Shown: positions 2,200 to 19,562 of the stretch, in pieces
How the letters are laid out: each line of letters opens with the position of its first letter
Numbering within the stretch: position 1 is the stretch's first letter
NCBI GenBank assembly: GCA_902802905.1
Contig: CADCNT010000017.1
Coordinates: 186 to 64,185 of the forward strand
DNA: 64,000 bases
Direction of reading: 5' to 3'
From: an uncultured Erysipelotrichaceae bacterium
Lineage (GTDB): Bacteria > Bacillota_I > Bacilli_A > RFN20 > CAG-826
Position numbers and translations under genes: made by a program
The notes under the pieces: model-generated
What the model saw: only the letters and a program-made list of their open reading frames with translations
The model's database searches: none
What the model was told of the DNA's origin: nothing

Positions 2200-3351
2200 T
2201 TAGACAGTTAAATCTCCGTCTTTAATCCAATTAAGTTTCCTAAATAATAAATCAATGCCAAACACTAATATAGCAGGAAGGATGATTTGTAAACCAAAAA
2301 TGCCAACCCAGGTTTGCCAAGCTGTAACTCCCATAGAATCAATGGTGCCAATTTGTCCCACTAATCCAGCGGTACCCATACCAGCACTACTACCTAAACA
2401 TGATAACTTGAGCCAGCAAGTAGAAACAGGTCCTAATATTGCTGAAGCAATAATTGTAGGTAACCAAATAACTGGTTTCTTTAAGATATTTTTAAATTGA
2501 AGCATGGAGGTACCAATGCCAATAGAGATTACTGTGCCAATGGAATTATCTTTTCTAGATTGAATAGCAAATCCCACCATTTGACATGAACAACCAACAA
2601 CTGCAGCACCACTAGCAAGAATTAAACCTTGATAATCAGCCACATTAGCTCCTGTCGGAATAATAAAGACCATTGCAGCAATAGCAGCACTACTAATAGG
2701 AGCGGTAAGTGCCATGCCCATTAATACCGCAACAATAATGCCCATCACAAATGGAACAACTGTGGTTCCGGCATTAACTAACCATTGAATGCCATATGTA
2801 ACACAGATAGCAGGATATCTAATGCCTAAAGATAGTAAAACACCAGTGGCAACACCAAATAATGGAACGATTAAAATATCGACTGGAGTTTTCTTTCTTA
2901 ACACTAATTGCATTAACAATGCAACCGAGATACAAACTAGATAGATAGTTAAAGGATCGCCAATTTGGAATTTAAACGCTAAATGGTCAATAACAGCGTT
3001 AGGATTAAAGATGGTTGTGCTTAAAGAAGTACATGCAGCAATTTGACCGACTGCGGCAAGGACAATTGTTTTTAAAGGACCAAATTTTAAAGAAATAGCA
3101 ATACCCACTCCAATACCAGCACCTGTAATACACTGCAATATTGTTGATATGCCTATCCAGTTATTAGTGTCGGTTTTATGTCCATTGAACAAATGGAGCA
3201 TGAATTCACAGAACTTGCTAGTTTCTGCACCATAGCCAAATAGTTTTCCAATTGTGGCAAATATGGTACCTACAATTAAAGTAGCGAATAATCCATACGC
3301 CATCCCGTTAAGGGTTTTCATAAAAAAGTTTAAAACTGGTTTTTCTTTCAT
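2200..3351 (-). CDS. PTS EIIC-like / PfoR-type (COG3641-like) membrane protein
   Basis: 383-aa Gly-rich polytopic protein. The N-terminus MKTLNGMAYGLFATLIVGTIF resembles the PfoR/EIIC-like family. The assignment is from memory of that family. Confidence 0.45.
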   Translation of the reverse strand: MKEKPVLNFFMKTLNGMAYGLFATLIVGTIFATIGKLFGYGAETSKFCEFMLHLFNGHKTDTNNWIGISTILQCITGAGIGVGIAISLKFGPLKTIVLAAVGQIAACTSLSTTIFNPNAVIDHLAFKFQIGDPLTIYLVCISVALLMQLVLRKKTPVDILIVPLFGVATGVLLSLGIRYPAICVTYGIQWLVNAGTTVVPFVMGIIVAVLMGMALTAPISSAAIAAMVFIIPTGANVADYQGLILASGAAVVGCSCQMVGFAIQSRKDNSIGTVISIGIGTSMLQFKNILKKPVIWLPTIIASAILGPVSTCWLKLSCLGSSAGMGTAGLVGQIGTIDSMGVTAWQTWVGIFGLQIILPAILVFGIDLLFRKLNWIKDGDLTV

Positions 3352-3438
3352 ATCGTTATAATTATAAGAATTATAGTTTAAAATTCAAATAAAAAACCTC
3401 TACCTTATGCAGAGGCTTGAATTCATTTACTTTGAAGC

Positions 3439-8962: not shown

Positions 8963-10741
8963 TTATTCCACTGTTACACTTTTAGCGAGATTTCTTGGTT
9001 TATCTACGTTAAGACCTTTGGCTAAAGATACGTAGTAAGCAAGATAGAACGCTACAGAAGAGATAGCAACACTTGATAAGTAATATGCATAATCATTAAC
9101 AACGATGTTGTCTTCTTCTTTGGCTAAGAATTTAGTGCTTATCTCATAAATGATTGCGCCTCTCGCTCTCACTTCTTCAATATTGCCTCTCATGCTACTA
9201 GCGGTTTCTGGATCGGTAATAAATACAATTACAGGTGTGCCTTCTTCAATTAAAGCAATTGGACCATGTTTAAGTTCGCCTCCAGGAACAGCTTCACTAT
9301 GGATATAGCTTACCTCTTTAAGCTTCAAAGAAGCTTCCAAAGATAAGAAGTAGTCAAATCCTCTTCCTAAATAGAAGATGTTGGTTTTATCTTTGAGTTC
9401 TTCAGCGATGGCCTGAATACGAGGCTTGTAGTTATTTTTGATGTCTCTAACAATTTTTAAGGCATCTTTTAAGTCTTTGATTACTCGCTTGTTGTTGTTA
9501 AGTGAGGCGGCGAGTAACGCTAATAAAGCAGTTTGCGCGACATACGCTTTAGTAGATGCCACAGACACTTCAATGCCAGCGTGTAATAATAAAGAATATT
9601 GGCAGTTTCTATCTAGAGTAGAGCCACCAGTGTTAGTTATAACTAAACAATTTAAGTTATGCTCTTTAATAATCTTTAAGCAGTGAATTAAATCTGCAGT
9701 TTCTCCAGATTGAGAAATGAGGATGATAAATGGTTTTTGTCCTGGGAAAGTTGGATGGAACGCCCACTCCGAAGCGATAAATCTAGAGGCGGATTGACCA
9801 GCATCTTCAAAATATCGTCCGCCTACTAAAGAAGCGTGATAAGAAGTACCACAAGCAATAAAGATGATATGGTCACTTTCCTTTAAAGATTTGACGAGGT
9901 TTGGATCAAATTGGAATTCATCATCGACGTAGTAGGTATCGATGATTCTTTCTACAGTTGGTTCAATCTCCTCAATTTCTTTAAGCATATAGTGAGGATA
10001 GCCTTTTAAATCATGAGAAATGGCTTCAATATCCTTATGGATATATTCTTTGCTCACTACTTCACCAGCTTGATTATAAATAGTAGCGTCTTTATTAGAT
10101 AAGACACCATATTCATTATCGTCTAATTCAATAAATGTATTGGTGAGTTCAATCATTGGTGAAGCATCAGAAGCCACTAAATTAAAGTTATTTCCTTTAC
10201 CCACAATTAAAGGGGATCCTTTTTTCATCACATATAAGTGATTAGTGTCATCAGGAGTAAAGACCACAAAGGCGTAATTGCCTTTTAATAAGTCCATTAC
10301 TTCTTTAATGGATTTAAGGACATCTTTATTCTCTAGATAGTGATATTCAATAAGATTAGCAACGATTTCACTATCGGTGTCTCCATAAAATTCATATCCC
10401 TTTTCTAAAAGAAACTTCTTTAGTTCCATGAAGTTTTCAATCACTCCATTATGAACTAAGCAGATGGCTTTATGATTTGATAAATGTGGGTGAGTGTTTT
10501 CCTTGTTAGGAACACCATGTGTGGCCCATCTTGTGTGGCCAATCATGATATTGGATTTGATTCTATTAGGAACAATATCCATAAGATGTTCAACACTGCC
10601 AACATCTTTGATGATTTTTAAGCCATTATCAAAGAAGGCTACTCCAGCGGAGTCATAACCACGATAATCTAAAGTTTTAAGTCCTCTAAGGGTATAGCCT
10701 CTAGGTTCTTTCAGGCCAATTGCCCCCACTATTCCACACAT
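8963..10741 (-). CDS. glmS: glutamine--fructose-6-phosphate aminotransferase (isomerizing)
   Basis: Starts MCGIVG (Ntn Cys after Met), has two SIS domains, and ends with the typical ...KPRNLAKSVTVE. The ORF-track start one codon upstream is unlikely. Confidence 0.95.
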   Translation of the reverse strand: MCGIVGAIGLKEPRGYTLRGLKTLDYRGYDSAGVAFFDNGLKIIKDVGSVEHLMDIVPNRIKSNIMIGHTRWATHGVPNKENTHPHLSNHKAICLVHNGVIENFMELKKFLLEKGYEFYGDTDSEIVANLIEYHYLENKDVLKSIKEVMDLLKGNYAFVVFTPDDTNHLYVMKKGSPLIVGKGNNFNLVASDASPMIELTNTFIELDDNEYGVLSNKDATIYNQAGEVVSKEYIHKDIEAISHDLKGYPHYMLKEIEEIEPTVERIIDTYYVDDEFQFDPNLVKSLKESDHIIFIACGTSYHASLVGGRYFEDAGQSASRFIASEWAFHPTFPGQKPFIILISQSGETADLIHCLKIIKEHNLNCLVITNTGGSTLDRNCQYSLLLHAGIEVSVASTKAYVAQTALLALLAASLNNNKRVIKDLKDALKIVRDIKNNYKPRIQAIAEELKDKTNIFYLGRGFDYFLSLEASLKLKEVSYIHSEAVPGGELKHGPIALIEEGTPVIVFITDPETASSMRGNIEEVRARGAIIYEISTKFLAKEEDNIVVNDYAYYLSSVAISSVAFYLAYYVSLAKGLNVDKPRNLAKSVTVE

Positions 10742-10747
10742 CAATTA

Positions 10748-12082
10748 TTACCTCTCTAGATATTTTTGCAGCTCAAATTCTGAAACTGTTGTGTGATAAT
10801 CTTTCCACTCTTTTTCTTTAGCTTCAATATATTTATAAAATAAATGATCTCCTAATACTTCTTTTAAGATTGAAGACTTCTTAAAGTCTTTGATTGCAGA
10901 ATGTAAAGTTGCTGGTAGGCATTCAATTTTTCTATCAGCGATTTCATCTTCGCTTAAAGAGAATAAGTTATCAGTGACTGGGGCCACCATATCCTTTTCT
11001 TTGATGTTTTTAATGCCGTCAAGTCCACAAGCAAGTATACCTGCTAAAGCAAGATAAGGGTTGGCACATGGGTCGACATTTCTAAGTTCAGTTCTAGTAG
11101 CCGCACCTCTAATAGCAGGAATTCTAATTAAAGAACTTCTGTTAGCATCACTCCAACAAGCGTAGATAGGTGCTTCATAGCCGCTAACTAATCTCTTATA
11201 AGAATTAACGATTGGGTTAGTTAATAAGCTTAATTCACGAGCGTGATTTAAAATACCGCTCACCCATTTTTTACACATAAGTGATAATTCCATATCTGCT
11301 TTTGGATCATAGAATAAGTCACCTTTGTCTTTATTGTATAAAGAACAATTAGTGTGCATGCCGTTACCTGCTTGTTTGTTTAAAGGCTTTGGCATAAAAG
11401 ATGCTAAGTAACCGTTTTTTCTAGCCACTACTTTTACTACTTGCTTAAATGTTTGCACACGGTCACATGCACTCACAACATCAGAATATTTGAAAGTGAT
11501 TTCATTTTGTCCAGGGCCAACTTCATGATGGGAGGCTTGTACTTCAAAACCCATGCTTTCAAGCATTAAAGAGATTTCTCTTCTAATGTTTTCTCCACCA
11601 TCAAATGGTGATAAATCAAAGTATGATGCTGCATCACTAATTTTAGTAGATGCACTTCCATCTGGATTTAATTTGAAAAGATAGAATTCTGGTTCAAAAC
11701 CAACATACATGGTTTCAATGCCTTCTTTGTTCATCTTTTCAACTTGTTTCTTCAAGATGTAACGTGGATCACCAACAAAAGGTTTCCCGTCAGGCATATA
11801 AACATCACAAATGAATCTTGCCACTCCTCCGATAGAAGAATCTTCAAATGGTAAAACTAAAAACGTATCAATATCTGGATGCAGATACATATCAGCTTCT
11901 TTGATTCTCACAAACCCTTCAATAGAAGAACCATCGAACATGATTTTATTATTTAAAGCATCATCTAATTTGGAAATTGGAATTTCCACAGCTTTAATAT
12001 CACCTAACATATCAGTGAATTGTAATCTGATATAAGAGATTTTCTTTTCTTCAATTATTTTTCTAATATCATTCTTGTTCAT
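10748..12082 (-). CDS. glnA: glutamine synthetase, type I
   Basis: 444 aa. Contains FDGSSIEGF, the HHEVGPGQNEI region, NGMHTN and the SYKRLVSGYEAP motifs characteristic of GSI. Confidence 0.95.
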   Translation of the reverse strand: MNKNDIRKIIEEKKISYIRLQFTDMLGDIKAVEIPISKLDDALNNKIMFDGSSIEGFVRIKEADMYLHPDIDTFLVLPFEDSSIGGVARFICDVYMPDGKPFVGDPRYILKKQVEKMNKEGIETMYVGFEPEFYLFKLNPDGSASTKISDAASYFDLSPFDGGENIRREISLMLESMGFEVQASHHEVGPGQNEITFKYSDVVSACDRVQTFKQVVKVVARKNGYLASFMPKPLNKQAGNGMHTNCSLYNKDKGDLFYDPKADMELSLMCKKWVSGILNHARELSLLTNPIVNSYKRLVSGYEAPIYACWSDANRSSLIRIPAIRGAATRTELRNVDPCANPYLALAGILACGLDGIKNIKEKDMVAPVTDNLFSLSEDEIADRKIECLPATLHSAIKDFKKSSILKEVLGDHLFYKYIEAKEKEWKDYHTTVSEFELQKYLER

Positions 12083-12302: not shown

Positions 12303-15300
12303 TTAGAATGGTAAATCACTATCATCAACATCGAAGGAACCGAAACTGGTTTGAGTGTTCCTCACTCCTGGAGTTGGATTCATGAAGTAAGGGCAATACC
12401 TTAATGTTGCGTTGTGATCAAAGTTATCCACTACATCTGGTGGAAGCTTAGTGTTTTTGCAAGATAATGCAACTTTATTAGATCTAGTTCCAATAATCGC
12501 ATTGCAGTTATCTCTGCTATCAAAGACTGGATTACCTTTTTCTACTTCAATCTTTTCGATATTGAAGCACATCTCAAATACACGAGATTCAATATAAGTT
12601 ACGTTCTTTGGAATAAATACCTCTTTAACACCTTGATTGTTATAGAATCCAGGGAACGCTAGACGTTTAACAAAGTTAGGAATCTTACTTGCGTCTAAAC
12701 CAAACATTAAAGCGTCATTAACTGGATTAAAGATGATTCCGTCTTTTTCAACATACAAAGGATGATCTTTAGAAATCTTAACATCCACCAAGTTTTCTTT
12801 TTCCATCATTCCAAGTTGGCTTAAATCAGTTAAGGAAGCAGGAATAAATAAGTGCTCTATGTTATCTCTAGTTAACGCAGAAGCCTTAATAGAGGTAACT
12901 CCTTCAGGAATATTTGCGTCATCCGCTAAGTAAACTAGCTCTCTTCCATGGATATCAAATAACGCAGTATTCTCTTTGTTTGTTTTGAAGAACAAGTTGT
13001 CTTCATCAACAAAGATTTTATTTATCTTTGCATTATAAGCAAATTCAGGAGAGATATAGAATAAATTCTTGCCAATATAAAGTTCATCAATTGTAGAATA
13101 GGCAAAGCAATCGCCTAAAGATAACATGCTGTCTTTAAGAACAACTTTTTCAAAGTAGCGAGCATTATAACAACCTCTAGCAATAGAGGTATGTTCAGAT
13201 GGTAATAATGCTTTATTAGTTGTGTACAAGATGCCTTTGTTTTCTAAAGACATAAGGTAGCCATATTCAGACTTGAAGTACTTACTACCATTTTCAACTT
13301 CTATTTCTTTAGCGGTAAATTCATATAGTCCAGCTACTTCATTTACTGAAGCAGGAATACTCAATTTCGCGACGGAAATCCCGCGGAATGCATTTACAAG
13401 TATCTTTTCTAGGCCACTATTTAAGGTGATTTCTTTCACATTAACGCAGTCCGCAAAAGCACTTTCGCAGATATATTTTAAAGAATGCGGGAAAGATAAT
13501 TCGCTTAAACCAGTACATCCTTCAAATGCAGAATCAGATATAATCGCTAAAGATCCAGGGAAATTAATTTCTTTTAATTTCTCAACTTGGAAGAATGCAT
13601 ATTTAGCAATTTGCTCTACGCCTTGAGGGATGCGTGAATTTTTACAACCAAGTAGTAAAACTTTATGTCCATCTGGATCTAAATAAGTAACAATATCAGA
13701 GTCTTCATCACTAAAGACAGAATTGTTCTTGTCTACGTTAATATTTTCAATATCACAGCCTGCAAAAGCACCATTGGATAGTTGCTCTAAGGATGATGGT
13801 AAGTAAACATAATTAATAACTTTGTTATTAAAGAATGCTGCTCTGCCAATATATTTTAATCCTTCATTAAAGGCAGGAACTCTTAAGAATTCACAGCCGT
13901 AGAAAGCTTCATCTGCAATCTTTTCAAGTTCTGGAGGTAAGCTGATTCTTTCTAAAGAAGTACAGTTTTTAAAGCATGCGTTAGGAACAGTGTCGATTCT
14001 TGCATAAGAAACAACAGAATGTAAATTAGTGCAATTTTCAAATGCACTTGCACCAATTACTTCAATTGATTCAGGTAAGCCAATATCTCTTATCGCGCAA
14101 TTTTTAAATGCACTAGAGCCTATACTTTTTACTCCATTAGGAATGCCGACAATTTCCAAGTCCTTGCAGTTTAAGAAAGCTTCAACAGCAATCTTTTCCA
14201 CAGATTCCGGAACATCAACCTTTTGAAGTCCACTATTTGCGAAAGCATTATAAGGTATTTCTTTTATGTTTTTAGGCAAAGTAACTATTTTCAAATTAGT
14301 TGTGAAAGCAAAGACATTTTGGCCAAGCTTTTCAACATTCTCAGGCAATTCAATCTTTTCTAAAGCAGAACAACCTTCAAATGCACAGTTAGAAATACCT
14401 TTTAAGGTGTTTGGCAGAGAAATCTTTTTCAAACTTGTACAGTTTGCAAATGCAAACATTTCAATGTATTCAAGATAAGCAGGTAGTTCAATTTCTTCTA
14501 AAGAAGAACATCCCACAAATGCGCTGCTTGGAATACTATTCATCTCACTATTAATAATGACTTTCTTTAAAGATGTACATCTTGCAAATGCTCCAACCTC
14601 AAAATTCACACCATGAGGAATAATTATTTCTTCTAATAGTTCATTTCCACTAAAAGCAGAACGAGAGATAAATTCAACACTATTAGGAATTATTGTATTA
14701 GCACTTGCTAATAGCATTTGATTAGATTCACTATCAATAAGTGCGCTACAACCTTCTCTACTATCATAAACGCTATTATCTTTGGCAACTTCAATTTTCT
14801 TAAGATGAGAAAAGCAACTGCTTGTTAATATATTTGCCTTAATCTTAAATGTAGAAGGTATATATAGTTCCTCAACATTATCGCAGTCTTTAAATACAGC
14901 GCTATCCATTTTTAGGAGTGACTCTGGAAAGATAACCTTTTTAATTGCAGTGTTGGCAAATGCTTCTTCTCCTAAAGTAATTAAAGAGGTTGGCAGTTTG
15001 GCTTCACTTAAAGAAACACAGTTTTTAAATGCGTGCTTTTCAATAAAGTTAACAATGCCTAAATCTACTTCTTTAAAAGAAGTACAGCCAATAAATGCAC
15101 CCTCTTTTACTTCTCTTACTGTTTCAGGAAGAGCAACTTTCTTTAAAGAGTCGCAATACGCAAAAGCATATTTATAAATGGTTCTAACTCCTTGAGGAAT
15201 TGCGGAATTTTCACATCCTAAAATGAGTCTAGCTTTTTTCACTAAAATAAGAGCGTTACAGTCATCTTCACTGGAGTAAACCATGTTAAGTGGAGCGACT

Positions 15301-17582
15301 TTAATAGACTTAAGTACTTTAGGTAATCCTAGGAAGGCATCTTTACCAATTTGTTTGACCTTTTCAGGAATGTACAAGTCTTCGAAACTTGTACAGTGAG
15401 CAAAAGCGTATTGACCAATTTTGGTTACGCTTCCAGGAATCTCAAACACTAAGTTAGAGCAATTTTCAAAAGCGTGATTGCCAATCTTTGTAATCTTTCC
15501 TAAAACATTAACTTTCTTTAAGTTGGTACAGCCAACAAATAACGAATTAGGAATTTCAGTGATTCCCTCTGGTAGAGTGATTTCTCTTAAGGAGACACAG
15601 TTGGAGAAAGCACCATCTCCAAGTCTTGTAAGAGAAGATGGCAAATTAATCTTTTGTAACCATTTACACGACGCAAAGCAGTTATTTCCAATTGTTTCCA
15701 CTCCTTCTGGAATATCGATTGATTTAAGCATTTTGTTCTTAAATGGATAACTTAAAATTTGTTTTACACCTTTATCAACTATGTCTTTGAGTGTATAGAA
15801 CAAGACATCGTTATAATCAATAATTGATTTGTTGTCTTTAACATTCTTATAGACTTTGTTGTCTTTGCTAATTTCGATTTCCTCTAAACGTGGACAATCG
15901 GTAAATGCATCATCTGCTAATTCTAAAACAGAACTAGACACAACCGCTTTAGTTAAGGATGCACAGTTGGAGAAGGCATTTCTTTCGACTTTTAAAACAG
16001 TATCAGGTAAGACAGCTTCTTTCAGACGAATGCAACCAGCAAAAGCTTTGCTTCCAATTCTTTCAACTCTAGAAGTTGCTAGGTTGGTTTTTGCTAGTTT
16101 TTCATTGTTAGTAAATGCGGAAGCACCTATTTCTTTAACTGATTCAGGGAATGTCACTTCTTTTAGCTGACATCCTTCAAAAGCGGAATCGCCAATTATT
16201 TCTAATTCTTCTGGGAATCTAACTTCATCCAAGTAATAGCAGTACTTAAAGGTAAGGCTATTAATGGATTTGATATATGGAGGAAGTTCCACATAATCAA
16301 TATTTGTATAGGCGAAAGCAGCTTCACCAATATAACGTAAATACGTTGGTAACTTAATTTTGCTAATTCCGGTTCCGTAGAATGCTTTTTTGCCAATTAC
16401 TTTGAGCTTATCATTAAAAATCACTTCTTTAACGTTACTGTTAAAAGCAAAAGCGTCTTGACCGATGCTATCGACAAAGTATGGAATTTCTACACTTTCT
16501 TCTTTACCTAAATACTTCACGATTTCAATCGCATCATTAATGATAAATCCATCAGGGCAAATAACTTTCTTATGAATATTAATTTCAAATTGAGAAGAAT
16601 ACTGTTCAAAATCAGGTATTTCTTCACTGACGCGAGAAATAGATCTCTTGTCTAATTCTTTAGGGTTGAATCTATATGGTTCACCGTATATATTCATGTA
16701 CTTCTTTTGGAATCTCTTATAAGAAACTTCAGAGTTATACGCTAAATAGGCAACGCGAGATTTGATTTCATTATCCAGAGGATAGCAATGATCTTCATAA
16801 CTCTTTTGTTTAGCAATTAAGAAAAGCAAAAAAAGGATATAACGTTTAGAGATTGTAATCTTATTATTTACTTCATTTTCTTTAGAAAGGTTGAGTCCTA
16901 AATAAGAAATGGAGTTATGAGATTTGAAATCTAATTTAACTTTTCTAGTTTTCTTATCATTGATTTCAAGTTTATAAATAGCGAGTTGTTCTTTGATAAA
17001 TTCATAGAATTTATTTAATTCCTTATCATCTTCATATTCACTGGACAAAAGGATGTCATCACTATAACGGGAATAATGAAGAAGAGGATGTTTAGCTAAG
17101 TATTCAGAAATTGCTAAGTCAAACTTCTTCATGTAGAAATCACTAAGCATAGGAGAAGTGACAAAGCCGATAGATAAAGCACCTTTATAGAAAAGACCTT
17201 TAATTGCGTTTTTCCAATCATCATTAAAGTATTCACCGTATTGAGCGAAGAACGATTCTTCGGCGATACTTTCAAAGAAATGATGGATGTCTAATTTAAT
17301 AAAGCAGTTGGATTTAAGATGGCTTTGTAAAGCATCATAGCATCTAACGCCTTTATGATAAGCGAAAGAGAAGAGACTTCTTTGGGAAAAATTGTTTTTA
17401 AACTCTTCGGCAATTTGTTCATGCACTCTTCTTAAAGAAGCACCATAATCACCAAATTTGTTATAAGTAATGATTGTCCTTTCTTTTTTGTTTTTCTCTT
17501 TGATGACAAAAGGATAAACATACTTATCAGGATTTAAAATGTAATCCGCTAAGAGGCGGCTTAATCTATTGATATTTCCCAT
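12303..17582 (-). CDS. reverse transcriptase (retron/Abi-UG-like) fused to a giant BspA-type leucine-rich-repeat (LRR_5-like) array; 1759 aa
   Basis: RT motifs in aa 1-330: KERTIITY; AYHKGVRCYDALQSH; KLDIHHFFESI (motif A Asp); SIGFVTSPMLSDFYM (motif B); YSRYSDDILLSS (YxDD, nt 17066-17055); LEINDKKTR; ISYLGLNL. From about aa 340 there are roughly 50-60 units of the pattern IPxxVxxIGxxAFxxCxxLxxI. No signal peptide. SD GGGAGG lies 8 nt before the ATG. Confidence 0.85.
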   Translation of the reverse strand: MGNINRLSRLLADYILNPDKYVYPFVIKEKNKKERTIITYNKFGDYGASLRRVHEQIAEEFKNNFSQRSLFSFAYHKGVRCYDALQSHLKSNCFIKLDIHHFFESIAEESFFAQYGEYFNDDWKNAIKGLFYKGALSIGFVTSPMLSDFYMKKFDLAISEYLAKHPLLHYSRYSDDILLSSEYEDDKELNKFYEFIKEQLAIYKLEINDKKTRKVKLDFKSHNSISYLGLNLSKENEVNNKITISKRYILFLLFLIAKQKSYEDHCYPLDNEIKSRVAYLAYNSEVSYKRFQKKYMNIYGEPYRFNPKELDKRSISRVSEEIPDFEQYSSQFEINIHKKVICPDGFIINDAIEIVKYLGKEESVEIPYFVDSIGQDAFAFNSNVKEVIFNDKLKVIGKKAFYGTGISKIKLPTYLRYIGEAAFAYTNIDYVELPPYIKSINSLTFKYCYYLDEVRFPEELEIIGDSAFEGCQLKEVTFPESVKEIGASAFTNNEKLAKTNLATSRVERIGSKAFAGCIRLKEAVLPDTVLKVERNAFSNCASLTKAVVSSSVLELADDAFTDCPRLEEIEISKDNKVYKNVKDNKSIIDYNDVLFYTLKDIVDKGVKQILSYPFKNKMLKSIDIPEGVETIGNNCFASCKWLQKINLPSSLTRLGDGAFSNCVSLREITLPEGITEIPNSLFVGCTNLKKVNVLGKITKIGNHAFENCSNLVFEIPGSVTKIGQYAFAHCTSFEDLYIPEKVKQIGKDAFLGLPKVLKSIKVAPLNMVYSSEDDCNALILVKKARLILGCENSAIPQGVRTIYKYAFAYCDSLKKVALPETVREVKEGAFIGCTSFKEVDLGIVNFIEKHAFKNCVSLSEAKLPTSLITLGEEAFANTAIKKVIFPESLLKMDSAVFKDCDNVEELYIPSTFKIKANILTSSCFSHLKKIEVAKDNSVYDSREGCSALIDSESNQMLLASANTIIPNSVEFISRSAFSGNELLEEIIIPHGVNFEVGAFARCTSLKKVIINSEMNSIPSSAFVGCSSLEEIELPAYLEYIEMFAFANCTSLKKISLPNTLKGISNCAFEGCSALEKIELPENVEKLGQNVFAFTTNLKIVTLPKNIKEIPYNAFANSGLQKVDVPESVEKIAVEAFLNCKDLEIVGIPNGVKSIGSSAFKNCAIRDIGLPESIEVIGASAFENCTNLHSVVSYARIDTVPNACFKNCTSLERISLPPELEKIADEAFYGCEFLRVPAFNEGLKYIGRAAFFNNKVINYVYLPSSLEQLSNGAFAGCDIENINVDKNNSVFSDEDSDIVTYLDPDGHKVLLLGCKNSRIPQGVEQIAKYAFFQVEKLKEINFPGSLAIISDSAFEGCTGLSELSFPHSLKYICESAFADCVNVKEITLNSGLEKILVNAFRGISVAKLSIPASVNEVAGLYEFTAKEIEVENGSKYFKSEYGYLMSLENKGILYTTNKALLPSEHTSIARGCYNARYFEKVVLKDSMLSLGDCFAYSTIDELYIGKNLFYISPEFAYNAKINKIFVDEDNLFFKTNKENTALFDIHGRELVYLADDANIPEGVTSIKASALTRDNIEHLFIPASLTDLSQLGMMEKENLVDVKISKDHPLYVEKDGIIFNPVNDALMFGLDASKIPNFVKRLAFPGFYNNQGVKEVFIPKNVTYIESRVFEMCFNIEKIEVEKGNPVFDSRDNCNAIIGTRSNKVALSCKNTKLPPDVVDNFDHNATLRYCPYFMNPTPGVRNTQTSFGSFDVDDSDLPF

Positions 17583-17608
17583 AGGAAAGACCTCCCACTA
17601 AAGAAAAA

Positions 17609-17701
17609 GGTGGTTACTATGCTAACAAGAGCTTCCATCCAGCCCTTATTGAACCCAACAAGGAAGCTTACTGGACTATCAATTAAGATAAACTAACCAC
17701 C
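17609..17701 (-). ncRNA. candidate structured non-coding RNA / 5' leader of the RT-LRR gene (retron msr-msd-like geometry)
   Basis: Terminal 8-bp pairing GGTGGTTA (17701-17694, minus) with TAACCACC (17616-17609). It encloses a small hairpin UAUC-uuaauu-GAUA and a larger hairpin AGCUUCC...GGAAGCU (17668-17630) that has an inner CCUUGUUG-GGUU-CAAUAAGG alternative. A U-tract, SD and the RT ATG follow. Confidence 0.45.
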
Positions 17702-17707
17702 ACGATT

Positions 17708-17737
17708 ATTATATATTTATAATCGACAATAAGTTAA
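17708..17737 (-). promoter_or_regulatory. candidate sigma70 promoter driving the structured RNA and RT-LRR gene
   Basis: Minus strand: TTAACT (17737-17732), 18-nt spacer, TATAAT (17713-17708). The predicted +1 is about 17701, i.e. the first base of the outer stem. Confidence 0.35.
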
Positions 17738-18010
17738 GATTTTTTCCTAACTTTTTTATTTTAACAAAATTATTTATAATAATGGCATGTGTTTTAGAGA
17801 TAGATTCGGATATAGATTAATCACGATGAGGAGTAGTTTCCGAAAGTGGATCAATTGGAATTACTTTAATAAATAAAGTAACAAACGAAGAAACCAATAG
17901 AGCCAATATGAAGACAGGTATCTATGGATTTAAAATCAAAATGGGAGAATCCTATCAATTGATTATTACAAGTTCAAAAGCAGTTGGATCATATAAATTA
18001 AGGATTGGAA

Positions 18011-18448
18011 ATGTATAGTTTATTGTTTAAACAAATTGAATCAATAATTGACAGAGATATTCCATTAACTTCAAACTTAGCGAATATCTCTGCTTTATTA
18101 TTTAAGATGGAAAATGTGAATTGGGCAGGTTTTTATCTAACAGATAAAGATAGACTAGTTCTCGGTCCTTTCCAAGGCGAAGTAGCGTGCACTATTATTC
18201 CTCTAGGAAAAGGAGTATGCGGCATCTCAGCCTGTAAAAAAGAAACAATCATTGTAGATAATGTTCATAAATTTAAAGGACACATTGCCTGTTCTTCCAT
18301 TTCTAAAAGTGAGATCGTTGTGCCAATCGCAAAAAACGATAATTTGATTGGTGTCATTGATATTGATTCACCAATTTATTCTAGGTTCGCAAATATTGAA
18401 AAAGAGTTTTTAGAAAAGGTTGCTTCTTTGATAGAAGAATTATGTTAG
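18011..18448 (+). CDS. msrC: GAF-domain free methionine-(R)-sulfoxide reductase-like protein
   Basis: Motifs NWAGFY, LVLGPFQGEVAC, GKGVCG, GHIACSS, SEIVVPI and GVIDIDS are typical of the fRMsr/YebR family. The ATG at 18011 has an AAGGA SD; the ORF-track TTG at 18005 is less likely. Confidence 0.8.
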   Translation: MYSLLFKQIESIIDRDIPLTSNLANISALLFKMENVNWAGFYLTDKDRLVLGPFQGEVACTIIPLGKGVCGISACKKETIIVDNVHKFKGHIACSSISKSEIVVPIAKNDNLIGVIDIDSPIYSRFANIEKEFLEKVASLIEELC

Positions 18449-18867
18449 TAACTTTCAAAGTATTTGAAAAATTGCCTGAAGAAGCAAAATTTATTAGAAC
18501 CACTGTTTTTGTTGATGAACAAGGTTTTATTGACGAATTTGATGAGAGTGACAATAAGGCAATTCATGTCCTAATGATTTTAGACGATAAAGCTGTAGGT
18601 ACTTCTAGAGTAATTTATTCAAAAGAGCATAAAAGTTACGCAATCGGAAGATTTGCCGTCTTAAAAGAATATCGAAATCAAGGTTTAGGGAATATACTTT
18701 TGCAATTCACCGAAAAAGAAATAGTTAAAAGATTTGGCCATATCCAAATAGGTGTAAGCAGTCAAATGCAAGCAAGTGAATTCTACGCAAAAAACGGTTA
18801 TAACCGCACGGAGCCCACTTATTTTGATCAACACTGCCTCCATGTTTGGATGATTAAACAACTATAA
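18442..18867 (+). CDS. GNAT family N-acetyltransferase
   Basis: RNQGLGNILL acetyl-CoA binding motif (Q/RxxGxG/A). Length 141 aa. Overlaps the upstream gene by 7 nt. Confidence 0.75.
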   Translation: MLVTFKVFEKLPEEAKFIRTTVFVDEQGFIDEFDESDNKAIHVLMILDDKAVGTSRVIYSKEHKSYAIGRFAVLKEYRNQGLGNILLQFTEKEIVKRFGHIQIGVSSQMQASEFYAKNGYNRTEPTYFDQHCLHVWMIKQL

Positions 18868-18898
18868 AAATAGCGTCGTAGCTAACGACGTCTATTTT
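18866..18898. terminator. bidirectional terminator between convergent genes
   Basis: Hairpin TAGCGTCGT-agcta-ACGACGTCTA flanked by AAAAA and TTTT. Confidence 0.6.
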
Positions 18899-19562
18899 AT
18901 TTTTTAAGAATAAATTGTTGTCTAGAATTTTTAAGCACTTCTCCACTACCAGTCCAAAGGGCATCTTTGTACCATTGTGGGACTCTATTATCAATTTCTC
19001 TTTCTTTTTGTTTGAGAAGATCATCTTGCTCTAATATCTCGCCTTTTCTAGAAAGGAGTTCATCTTTCTTTTTCTTTCTAACAACAGCAAGAGCGATAGA
19101 ACCACCTAGAGCTAATATACCAACAACAGTAAGAACAACTGCGATTGGCACTTGTGCTGCAGGAAGTGGTAATACTTTAGCAAGAGTAAGAATACCTAAT
19201 GATAAGGTGATAATAGCGACACAAAGTAAGAGAATAGAAATTGGAGCAAATGGAGATTTATTCATAATTTTAAGAGTTCTATCCATTGCTTCTCTTTCTT
19301 TTTTGACTTGTTTCAAATCTTCTCTAACCGCGTTAAGTGAATCGAGTTCTTCACCAACATAAACATCGGCAAATCCAGTAATACGGAAATGCTTTTCCTT
19401 AGTTTTTTCGGTCGTGCCATCAGATTTCTTAGTAACAGTGGTTACATATTCATCCATAATGCCAATATCAAAATTAAAAGCACCATTTTCGACAAATTCA
19501 TTTAATCTTTTAGCAGCGTCGCTTGCATCTTTTGTAAGCATTGCGATAGGTTTTTTATCCAT
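18897..19562 (-). CDS. hypothetical membrane protein (two central TM helices, coiled-coil flanks)
   Basis: 221-aa ORF. Hydrophobic segments at PISILLLCVAIITLSLGILTLA and IAVVLTVVGILALGGSIALAVV. No recognised motif. Confidence 0.55.
   Translation of the reverse strand: MDKKPIAMLTKDASDAAKRLNEFVENGAFNFDIGIMDEYVTTVTKKSDGTTEKTKEKHFRITGFADVYVGEELDSLNAVREDLKQVKKEREAMDRTLKIMNKSPFAPISILLLCVAIITLSLGILTLAKVLPLPAAQVPIAVVLTVVGILALGGSIALAVVRKKKKDELLSRKGEILEQDDLLKQKEREIDNRVPQWYKDALWTGSGEVLKNSRQQFILKK

Follow-up and report, generated by a model that had tools for sequence, protein, structure and literature searches.

What is the structured RNA that lies between a promoter and the start codon of a large reverse transcriptase (RT) gene in an uncultured Erysipelotrichaceae bacterium, and does it serve that enzyme as a template? 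The locus is contained in a stretch of 64,000 nucleotides (contig CADCNT010000017.1 of assembly GCA_902802905.1), referred to here as the window. On its minus strand, an open reading frame (ORF) at 17582-12303 encodes a protein of 1759 amino acids (aa), in which an RVT_1 domain (aa 53-232) is followed by approximately 1,400 aa of LRR_5 leucine-rich repeats (LRRs), as assigned by Pfam. A 93-nt element just upstream, at 17701-17609, had been marked in a first-pass annotation of the sequence as resembling the RNA of a retron. Judging from sequence comparison, this element is likely to be the msr-msd non-coding RNA (ncRNA) of a retron in which the N-terminal domain of this 1759-aa protein (RT-LRR) acts as the RT. 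It is the comparative loci, and not a single fold, that carry the evidence beyond chance.

Retrons are defence elements of bacteria that encode an RT, and their msr-msd RNAs are defined by complementary ends of ~8-30 nt, with a priming G located directly 3' of the first arm (a1), most often within TAGC (PMC6868368). They contain one to three short msr hairpins together with a long, variable msd hairpin, and they lie upstream of the RT gene in one transcript (PMC6868368, PMC7736814). The window and its relatives display the pairing of the ends, the G after a1, an msr hairpin, a promoter-msr-RT layout on one strand and an RT of the retron group.

The RNA element and its homologues

All features of the leader lie on the minus strand. 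The promoter named by the first-pass annotation is present, with TTAACT as a -35-like hexamer (17732-17737) and TATAAT as the -10 hexamer (17708-17713, 6 nt upstream of the first a1 base), separated by an 18-nt spacer, and a promoter scan returned the same hexamers. The element itself runs from a1 to its complement a2 (17609-17701, 93 nt) and is matched by covariance model R1 with 70.1 bits. The a1 arm GGUGGUUA (17694-17701) pairs with the a2 arm UAACCACC (17616-17609), and directly 3' of a1 stands G17693, the candidate priming (branching) residue, in the context UUAG-U and followed by UU. Next come the msr hairpin P1, UAUC-UUAAUU-GAUA (17677-17690), a GUCC segment and the conserved block AGUAAGC (17666-17672; AGYAAGC in relatives), which may act as a stop region or as the msr/msd junction. 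The variable hairpin AGCUUCC...GGAAGCU (17630-17668) is the candidate msd stem-loop, and the single-stranded segment CUUGUUAGCAUAG on its 3' side (17617-17629) is the predicted start of the reverse-transcribed template, by analogy with the retron mechanism (PMC7736814). A U-tract, UUUUUCUUUAG (17598-17608), lies directly 3' of a2 and may cause partial termination; it is followed by the Shine-Dalgarno sequence GGGAGG (17591-17596), which is preceded by U and stands 8 nt before the ATG at 17582. The end of a2 is thus 26 nt upstream of the RT start codon.

The minimum free energy (MFE) fold of the 123-nt leader (17705-17583) contains both the 8-bp closing stem and the small hairpin that the first-pass annotation had drawn. 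Its energy is -35.3 kcal/mol, compared with -28.5 +/- 3.3 for shuffled sequences (z = -2.05; 2 of 200 shuffles equally good), which is suggestive and not significant taken alone. The larger hairpin has two competing folds: the originally drawn AGCUUCC/GGAAGCU is favoured when the inner segment is folded in isolation, whereas the full-length RNA favours CCAG/CUGG plus CCUUGUUG/CAAUAAGG, within 17630-17668.

A search of a 5.8-billion-protein index with the RT domain gave 15 matches, all metagenomic or derived from metagenome-assembled genomes (MAGs). The loci compared here are the contigs of these matches together with those from a scan of one genome per species, and they come from Bacilli and Erysipelotrichaceae MAGs of the rumen and gut. 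When 1.84 billion representative proteins were searched with a profile, about 20 clusters of RT-LRR fusions (1,600-1,900 aa) and more distant fusions were also recognised; the five loci retrieved from this set carry the same RNA plan with different arms. The common plan stands directly upstream of the homologous RT gene in 19 distinct loci of gut and rumen Bacilli, for 13 of which the RT domains are ~45-72% identical, while the more distant relatives were recognised by profile score only. It consists of a -10 box, the closing stem a1/a2, a G right after a1 (TAG), a 4-bp hairpin, AGYAAGC, a variable hairpin, a U-tract or terminator, a ribosome-binding site and the start codon, the last lying 13-44 nt past a2 in the loci collected first. 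Viral contigs yielded distant RTs only (26-30% identity), without the RNA.

The arms of the closing stem differ between loci and remain complementary. In the loci collected first, a1 reads (G/A)(G/U)UGGUUA and is followed by G, and a2 reads UAACCA(C/U)(C/U), with (C)AUAG conserved immediately 5' of it. Nine different a1/a2 pairs were found, all complementary and with a G after a1 each time: GGUGGUUA/UAACCACC, AGUGGUUA/UAACCACU, GAUGGUUA/UAACCAUC, UUGGUUA/UAACCAA, GGCGGUA/UACCGCC, AGUAGGUG/CACCUACU in locus L036, GAGGUCA/UGACCUC in L037 (where P1 is UUCC/GGAA), UCGGAAGUGUUA/UAGCACUUCCGA in L034 (where the small hairpin also differs) and GUAACCA/UGGUUAC in L032, in which the family arms are swapped. 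The last four loci thus share the G after a1. In the alignment of 14 sequences, T7, A8 and G9 (TAG) are invariant and TAGC is read in 10 of the 14 loci; G9 is the G that the first pass had singled out in its UUAG context. The P1 loop is UUAAUU, nearly invariant, or UUAAGU; A30, G31, A33 and A34 of the AGYAAGC block are invariant, and AAGC forms the base of the variable hairpin in the RT-LRR group.

The order msr-msd-ret upstream of a retron-like RT, also recognised in the first pass, recurs with the same layout in 14 of 14 loci, and a -10 box lies at a fixed short distance upstream of a1 in each of them (6-7 nt in most, ~3-4 nt in L011 and L022). The latter is consistent with the earlier placement of the transcript start at a1 (~17701). 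Clearer -35 boxes, TTGACA, occupy the equivalent position in L008, L020, L002, L004, L011 and L022.

Covariation of the two helices, the check that had been suggested for homologous upstream regions, supports both of them. In a plain MAFFT alignment of 14 distinct sequences, 95.8% of cells are paired over the two helices (8 + 4 pairs) and 6 of the 12 pairs show double changes; none of 500 shuffles reached the observed pairing, double-change or covariation values, and sliding the 3' partners by 1-3 columns lowers the pairing to 30-58%. In an 18-sequence, model-fitted alignment, 97.7% of cells are paired and double changes occur in all 12 pairs, and for all five measures none of 500 shuffles came up to the observed value; this alignment leans towards the model structure, which the plain alignment and the directly readable arms do not. 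Within it, all eight closing-stem pairs show compensatory changes. All four P1 pairs covary (UUUC/GAAA, UAUC/GAUA, GUUC/GAGC, AUUC/GAGU, GAAG/CUUC and UUCC/GGAA), and RNAalifold returned the same two helices from nine sequences with no prior structure supplied. Model R1 matches each homologous locus once, with 34-82 bits and in every case immediately before the RT gene, with no second match in the window and none in the loci of distant RTs.

The region between AGYAAGC and a2 is not alignable across the family and is described from per-sequence folds only, with no claim of covariation. The sequence and length of its hairpin differ in every relative: the stem has ~17-18 bp in L002/L004 and is a perfect helix of 13-14 bp in L034 (z = -6.5). 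The msd-type stems of relatives span 13-18 bp with z of -3.2 to -6.5, and the variability of the region is what an msd would be expected to show. In the window, the msd hairpin is the least secure part of the element, whereas that of L034 and L002/L004 is convincing.

Affinity of the reverse transcriptase

The retron-type RT domain (aa 1-310; 16653-17582, minus strand) carries KLDIHHFF (aa 96) and YSDD (aa 173), and its catalytic residues D98, D175 and D176 are invariant in the family. Pfam RVT_1, PADLOC, the PDB and an AlphaFold2 model were used to place it, and in both sequence and fold it is closest to retron RTs. The PADLOC retron RT models I-B, II-A, III-A and Ec107-like score 1e-30 to 1e-22 and no type stands out, the first three being about equal at ~80-100 bits. 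A comparison of the family profile with the PDB ranked Ec83 first (7e-19), followed by Ec78, Ec86, Eco8, Ec67 and Kva2 (to 2e-13), while group II intron RTs reached 7e-9. For the AlphaFold2 model (pLDDT 82), the 17 best structural matches are all retron RTs, headed by Ec86 with template modelling (TM) scores of 0.67/0.71 over 316 columns. Group II, DRT9, diversity-generating retroelement (DGR), DRT2 and Abi-P2 enzymes follow, with DRT9, DRT2, DRT4 and Abi-P2 at rank 23 or lower.

Other assignments of the RT were considered and rejected. A UG/Abi (DRT) origin does not agree with the Drt3a score of 66 bits, below about 12 retron models (~100 bits), nor with DRT/Abi-P2 structures ranking far below retron RTs. 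The RT was likewise not placed in any of the 13 types that Mestre et al. (2020) distinguish among retrons, given that there is no type-specific RT score and no matching accessory or fused domain. As for a DGR, the RNA and the LRR gene share only a 20-nt, 80% chance match, and the DGR RT ranks 24th by fold.

Two other architectures were seen among the relatives of this RT. Distant members of the clade (P0127, P0056 and ~80 similar proteins) are proteins of 640-690 aa in which an unannotated domain of ~340 aa precedes a C-terminal RT, and in one relative of 905 aa the RT is preceded by a NACHT-like P-loop domain.

Counter-evidence and competing explanations

Several observations weigh against assigning the element to a retron. 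At the protein level, the best NCBIfam match is retron_St85_RT, yet its score of 115 bits compares with a cut-off of 235, and the RT matches no single retron type better than the others. The region X motif NAXXH and the region Y motif VTG are a signature of retron RTs (PMC7736814). In the family studied here, the former is replaced by (D/N)ALxxH, or more loosely xALxxH, of which only the histidine (H88) is invariant, and the latter by (Y/F)LG, of which only the glycine (G229) is invariant. At the RNA level, the element is short (93 nt), and the window reads TAGT, not TAGC, at the candidate priming G. In length, the candidate msd stem reaches 7 bp (or 4+8 bp), less than the 10-50 bp quoted for retron msd hairpins (PMC7736814), and its DNA folds weakly (-5 kcal/mol, z = -1.1). 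Rfam gave no match in 17583-17737 even at E <= 10, and no recognisable enzymatic effector is encoded in the window.

These points bear most directly on the alternative that survives best, although we regard it as rather improbable: that the RNA is a dedicated partner of the RT without classical 2'-5'-branched multicopy single-stranded DNA (msDNA), serving as a scaffold or conditional template from which cDNA is made on infection or by other priming. Precedents are found in type VI retrons, in which msDNA is scarce at rest, and in DRT2/DRT9-type systems; a type VI retron is reported to lack abundant msDNA (10.1101/2025.10.22.683967). The short and weak msd-like hairpin of the window, the partly kept NAXXH and VTG motifs and the position of the RT outside every defined retron type would all suit such a partner RNA, and the tight packing of a2, U-tract, Shine-Dalgarno sequence and ATG would make translational coupling possible. 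However, the complete retron geometry, i.e., a1/a2, the G in TAG, the msr hairpin and the variable hairpin, is conserved, the relatives L034 and L002 possess long and perfect msd-type hairpins, and both the sequence and the fold of the RT lie closer to retron RTs than to DRT RTs.

An intrinsic terminator or attenuator, formed by the closing stem and the U-tract and acting on the RT-LRR gene with no template role, was the alternative put forward in the first-pass annotation itself, and it is very unlikely to be the whole explanation. Its termination component probably stands as an added 3'-end signal, since a U-tract or a separate terminator does follow a2: a T-run lies directly 3' of a2 in 12 of 14 loci, and in the window the stem and U-run lie 26 nt before the start codon. 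However, a terminator scan of 17300-18100 found no terminator-like site, and the stem encloses a 77-nt multiloop, unlike a terminator hairpin. The internal motifs are left unexplained as well: TAG, the UUAAUU loop, AGYAAGC and AUAG are invariant even though the RT domains diverge to ~45% identity or further, and a terminator needs none of them. A GC hairpin with a U-run, i.e., a canonical terminator, is located right after a2 in L011 (5957-5990), L022 (1684-1717) and L032 (2925-2950). Because this separate hairpin follows a2, the a1/a2 stem is not the terminator in those loci. The arrangement suggests that the 3' end of the RNA is set by termination. In the simplest reading, 3'-end formation just past a2 is a conserved feature, which would yield a discrete RNA of ~100 nt in excess of the 5.3-kb read-through mRNA.

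Chance pairing in an AT-rich intergenic region would be compatible with the modest z of the single-sequence fold and with the fact that inverted repeats of 8 bp are not uncommon within ~100 nt, but conservation and covariation in 19 loci, with one specific model match per locus, refute it and leave it a negligible probability.

The repeat array, the C-terminal tip and their setting

Downstream of the RT domain, the BspA-type LRR_5 modules (~1,400 aa) and a low-complexity linker occupy 12330-16562 on the minus strand (Pfam LRR_5, 1030 bits, 14 stretches); PADLOC gave no match to the LRR region. In all arrangements observed, LRR_5 accompanies this RT clade, whether fused or encoded by a neighbouring gene. 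The two are fused in the window, L017-L021, L032 and L034-L036. In L001, an LRR_5 ORF (2811-3392) begins 4 nt past the RT stop codon, and in L002/L003, L004 and L011, LRR_5 is encoded by a separate upstream gene, accompanied by a SWIM finger in L002/L003, by a MazG-like gene in L011 and by neither in L004 (split loci at 4169-10345 in L002, 4404-10672 in L004 and 4261-7669 in L011). Because the relatives with short RTs have LRR_5 as a neighbouring gene, the RT-LRR link is conserved while gene order changes. L002/L004 add a NERD-helicase (PADLOC RTasNERD-Hel, 1.6e-41; weak STAND-like matches in Pfam) and a further large protein of 578-683 aa, and the LRR_5+SWIM protein of L002/L003 has a weak PADLOC match to SWIM_XIII (6.6e-5).

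The RT-LRR protein ends, after its low-complexity linker, in VDDSDLPF-COOH (12306-12329, minus strand), which resembles the C-terminal tip of SSB, the protein that binds single-stranded DNA. A tip of the DD(L/F/M)PF-COOH type (acidic run, L/F/M, P, F, stop) was present in 19 of 24 representative fusion proteins fetched, among them distant RT-LRR fusions and ~850-aa fusions without a Pfam LRR match; tip-coding sites in homologues include L017 12235, L018 11475 and L019 12211, and the proteins concerned are P0017-P0050. The tip is absent from stand-alone RTs and from separate LRR proteins, and among the remaining ORFs of the window and of the loci examined for the tip, none ends in this way. In Gram-positive bacteria, the SSB tip IDISDDDLPF is a hub that recruits genome-maintenance proteins (PMC5531588), and in some Streptococcus mutans strains a C-terminal LPF is a ClpXP degron (PMC5143411). 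Host RNase H is reported to be required for retron DNA maturation (PMC8989520), and Retron-Eco8 to be activated by phage SSB (PMC13402713). The tip of the RT-LRR protein could bring partners of the host SSB to the RT, act as bait for phage proteins docking on SSB, or control protein turnover.

The sequence of events proposed for the retron reading would be as follows. A sigma-70-type promoter (TTAACT, 18 nt, TATAAT) would start transcription at or next to G17701, as its conserved position suggests. The arms a1 (GGUGGUUA) and a2 (UAACCACC), whose pairing is borne out by covariation, would close the RNA, and P1 and AGUAAGC would presumably be offered as recognition elements to its own RT. By analogy with retron biochemistry, the RT would prime cDNA synthesis from the 2'-OH of G17693, and copying would begin at G17617, just 5' of a2, passing the variable hairpin towards AGUAAGC to give a single-stranded DNA (ssDNA) of ~45-55 nt with the predicted 5' end CTATGCTAAC. 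The U-tract past a2 probably ends part of the transcripts, by which the RNA would outnumber the read-through RT-LRR mRNA. The resulting RT-DNA-RNA complex, placed on a huge cytoplasmic LRR array with an SSB-like tip, would most likely be a phage-sensing defence particle.

We tentatively carry this proposal further, to a version that we consider doubtful, in which a new retron type combines an RT, a small DNA, a giant LRR sensor array and an SSB-like tip in a single-protein particle that impersonates SSB-coated ssDNA. This particle would trap or sense phage proteins docking on the tail of host SSB (recombinases, nucleases and helicases) or binding to the LRR array, and the output would come from the RT-LRR protein or from recruited host SSB partners, with no classical fused toxin. 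In the split relatives, the partners of the same RT and RNA would be an LRR(+SWIM) protein encoded separately and either a NERD-helicase or a STAND-like NTPase, and the whole might form a retron family resembling the nucleotide-binding, leucine-rich repeat (NLR) proteins.

The likeness to canonical retrons such as Retron-Eco1 (Ec86) extends to the promoter-msr-msd-RT order on one strand, the a1/a2 pairing, the G after a1 in TAG(C), the short msr hairpin followed by a variable hairpin and the fold of the RT, which is closest to that of Ec86. In contrast to them, the RNA of the window measures 93 nt and has a single msr hairpin and an msd stem of 7 bp, a separate effector gene is lacking, the RT is extended by ~1,400 aa of LRR_5 and an SSB-like tip, and NAXXH and VTG are only partly kept; the hosts of RT-LRR are gut and rumen Bacilli, not Proteobacteria. 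The single-protein retrons I-C (Eco2/Ec67, RT-Toprim), XI (RT-protease), XII (RT-TIR) and VII-A1 (RT-DUF3800) similarly consist of an ncRNA and one protein with an N-terminal RT and a C-terminal fused module (PMC7736814). Their fused module is an enzyme or effector, whereas RT-LRR has non-enzymatic solenoid repeats, and their PADLOC models score lower on the window RT than I-B, II-A and III-A. Type XIII retrons (Mx162, Mx65, Sa163; also present in Firmicutes) share the use of a solenoid repeat (HEAT/ARM) and of SWIM zinc-finger proteins (PMC7736814), the SWIM finger recurring in L002/L003. However, the repeats of RT-LRR are LRR_5 and not HEAT/ARM, the Mx162 transcript is far larger at 241 nt (PMC6868368), and the RT_XIII model is absent among the best 25 PADLOC matches of the window RT.

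Outside the retrons, UG/Abi class 1 RTs (AbiK, AbiA and DRT relatives) also join an RT to a long C-terminal repeat domain in defence contexts, and UG34 has a NERD-helicase partner, as do the split relatives L002/L004. These RTs nevertheless belong to a different clade, their repeats are alpha-helical and they have no RNA of the a1/a2 plus G type. Retron-Eco8 and SSB-sensing defence systems provide a precedent for a link between retrons and SSB (PMC13402713). In RT-LRR, by contrast, the protein itself carries the SSB-type tip. LRRs do not occur in the text of the Mestre et al. classification with its 13 types (PMC7736814), and searches of the full-text literature yielded no described retron with LRR, leucine-rich or BspA repeats and no RT bearing an SSB C-terminus.

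The RT-LRR gene of the window is a solitary one, flanked by divergently transcribed small genes on one side and by glnA-glmS on the other; the latter two are housekeeping genes on the minus strand (8963-12082), 3 nt apart and directly downstream of the RT-LRR gene. No hidden small ORF was found upstream of the RT. At gathering thresholds, Rfam recognised six tRNAs only in the whole window, the glmS ribozyme not being detected, and a weak RT-14 match in a permissive scan of 16500-19000 (E = 1.4) lies inside the coding region and was set aside as chance. Elsewhere, the gene adjacent to RT-LRR in L019 (12279-13529, minus strand) specifies a TIR_2 + LRR_5 protein of 416 aa, and in these genomes LRR_5 is thus joined to a known immune effector domain as well. 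ADP-ribosylglycohydrolase genes adjoin the RT-LRR gene in L032 (7808-8608), L033 (5108-5908) and L034 (1349-2152), and a NADAR-domain gene follows it in L017 (12716-13471). Both of these families reverse ADP-ribosylation.

To sum up the answer to the question raised by this locus, the element is probably the compact retron-type RNA of an unclassified, LRR-coupled and SSB-tip-bearing retron family of uncultured Bacilli, in which DNA would be synthesised from the RNA. With 93 nt, one msr hairpin and a freely variable msd hairpin, it would be among the smallest candidate retron templates, and such compactness would make it appealing where retrons are used to produce DNA or edit genomes in Gram-positive hosts. 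The SSB-tip mimic would offer a mutable element for studying the link of retrons to ssDNA metabolism and phage sensing. If the assignment is true, it describes a retron family outside the current classification, so far found only in uncultured gut and rumen Bacilli, and the first one to join an RT to leucine-rich repeats, which are the sensor module in immunity of the NLR type.

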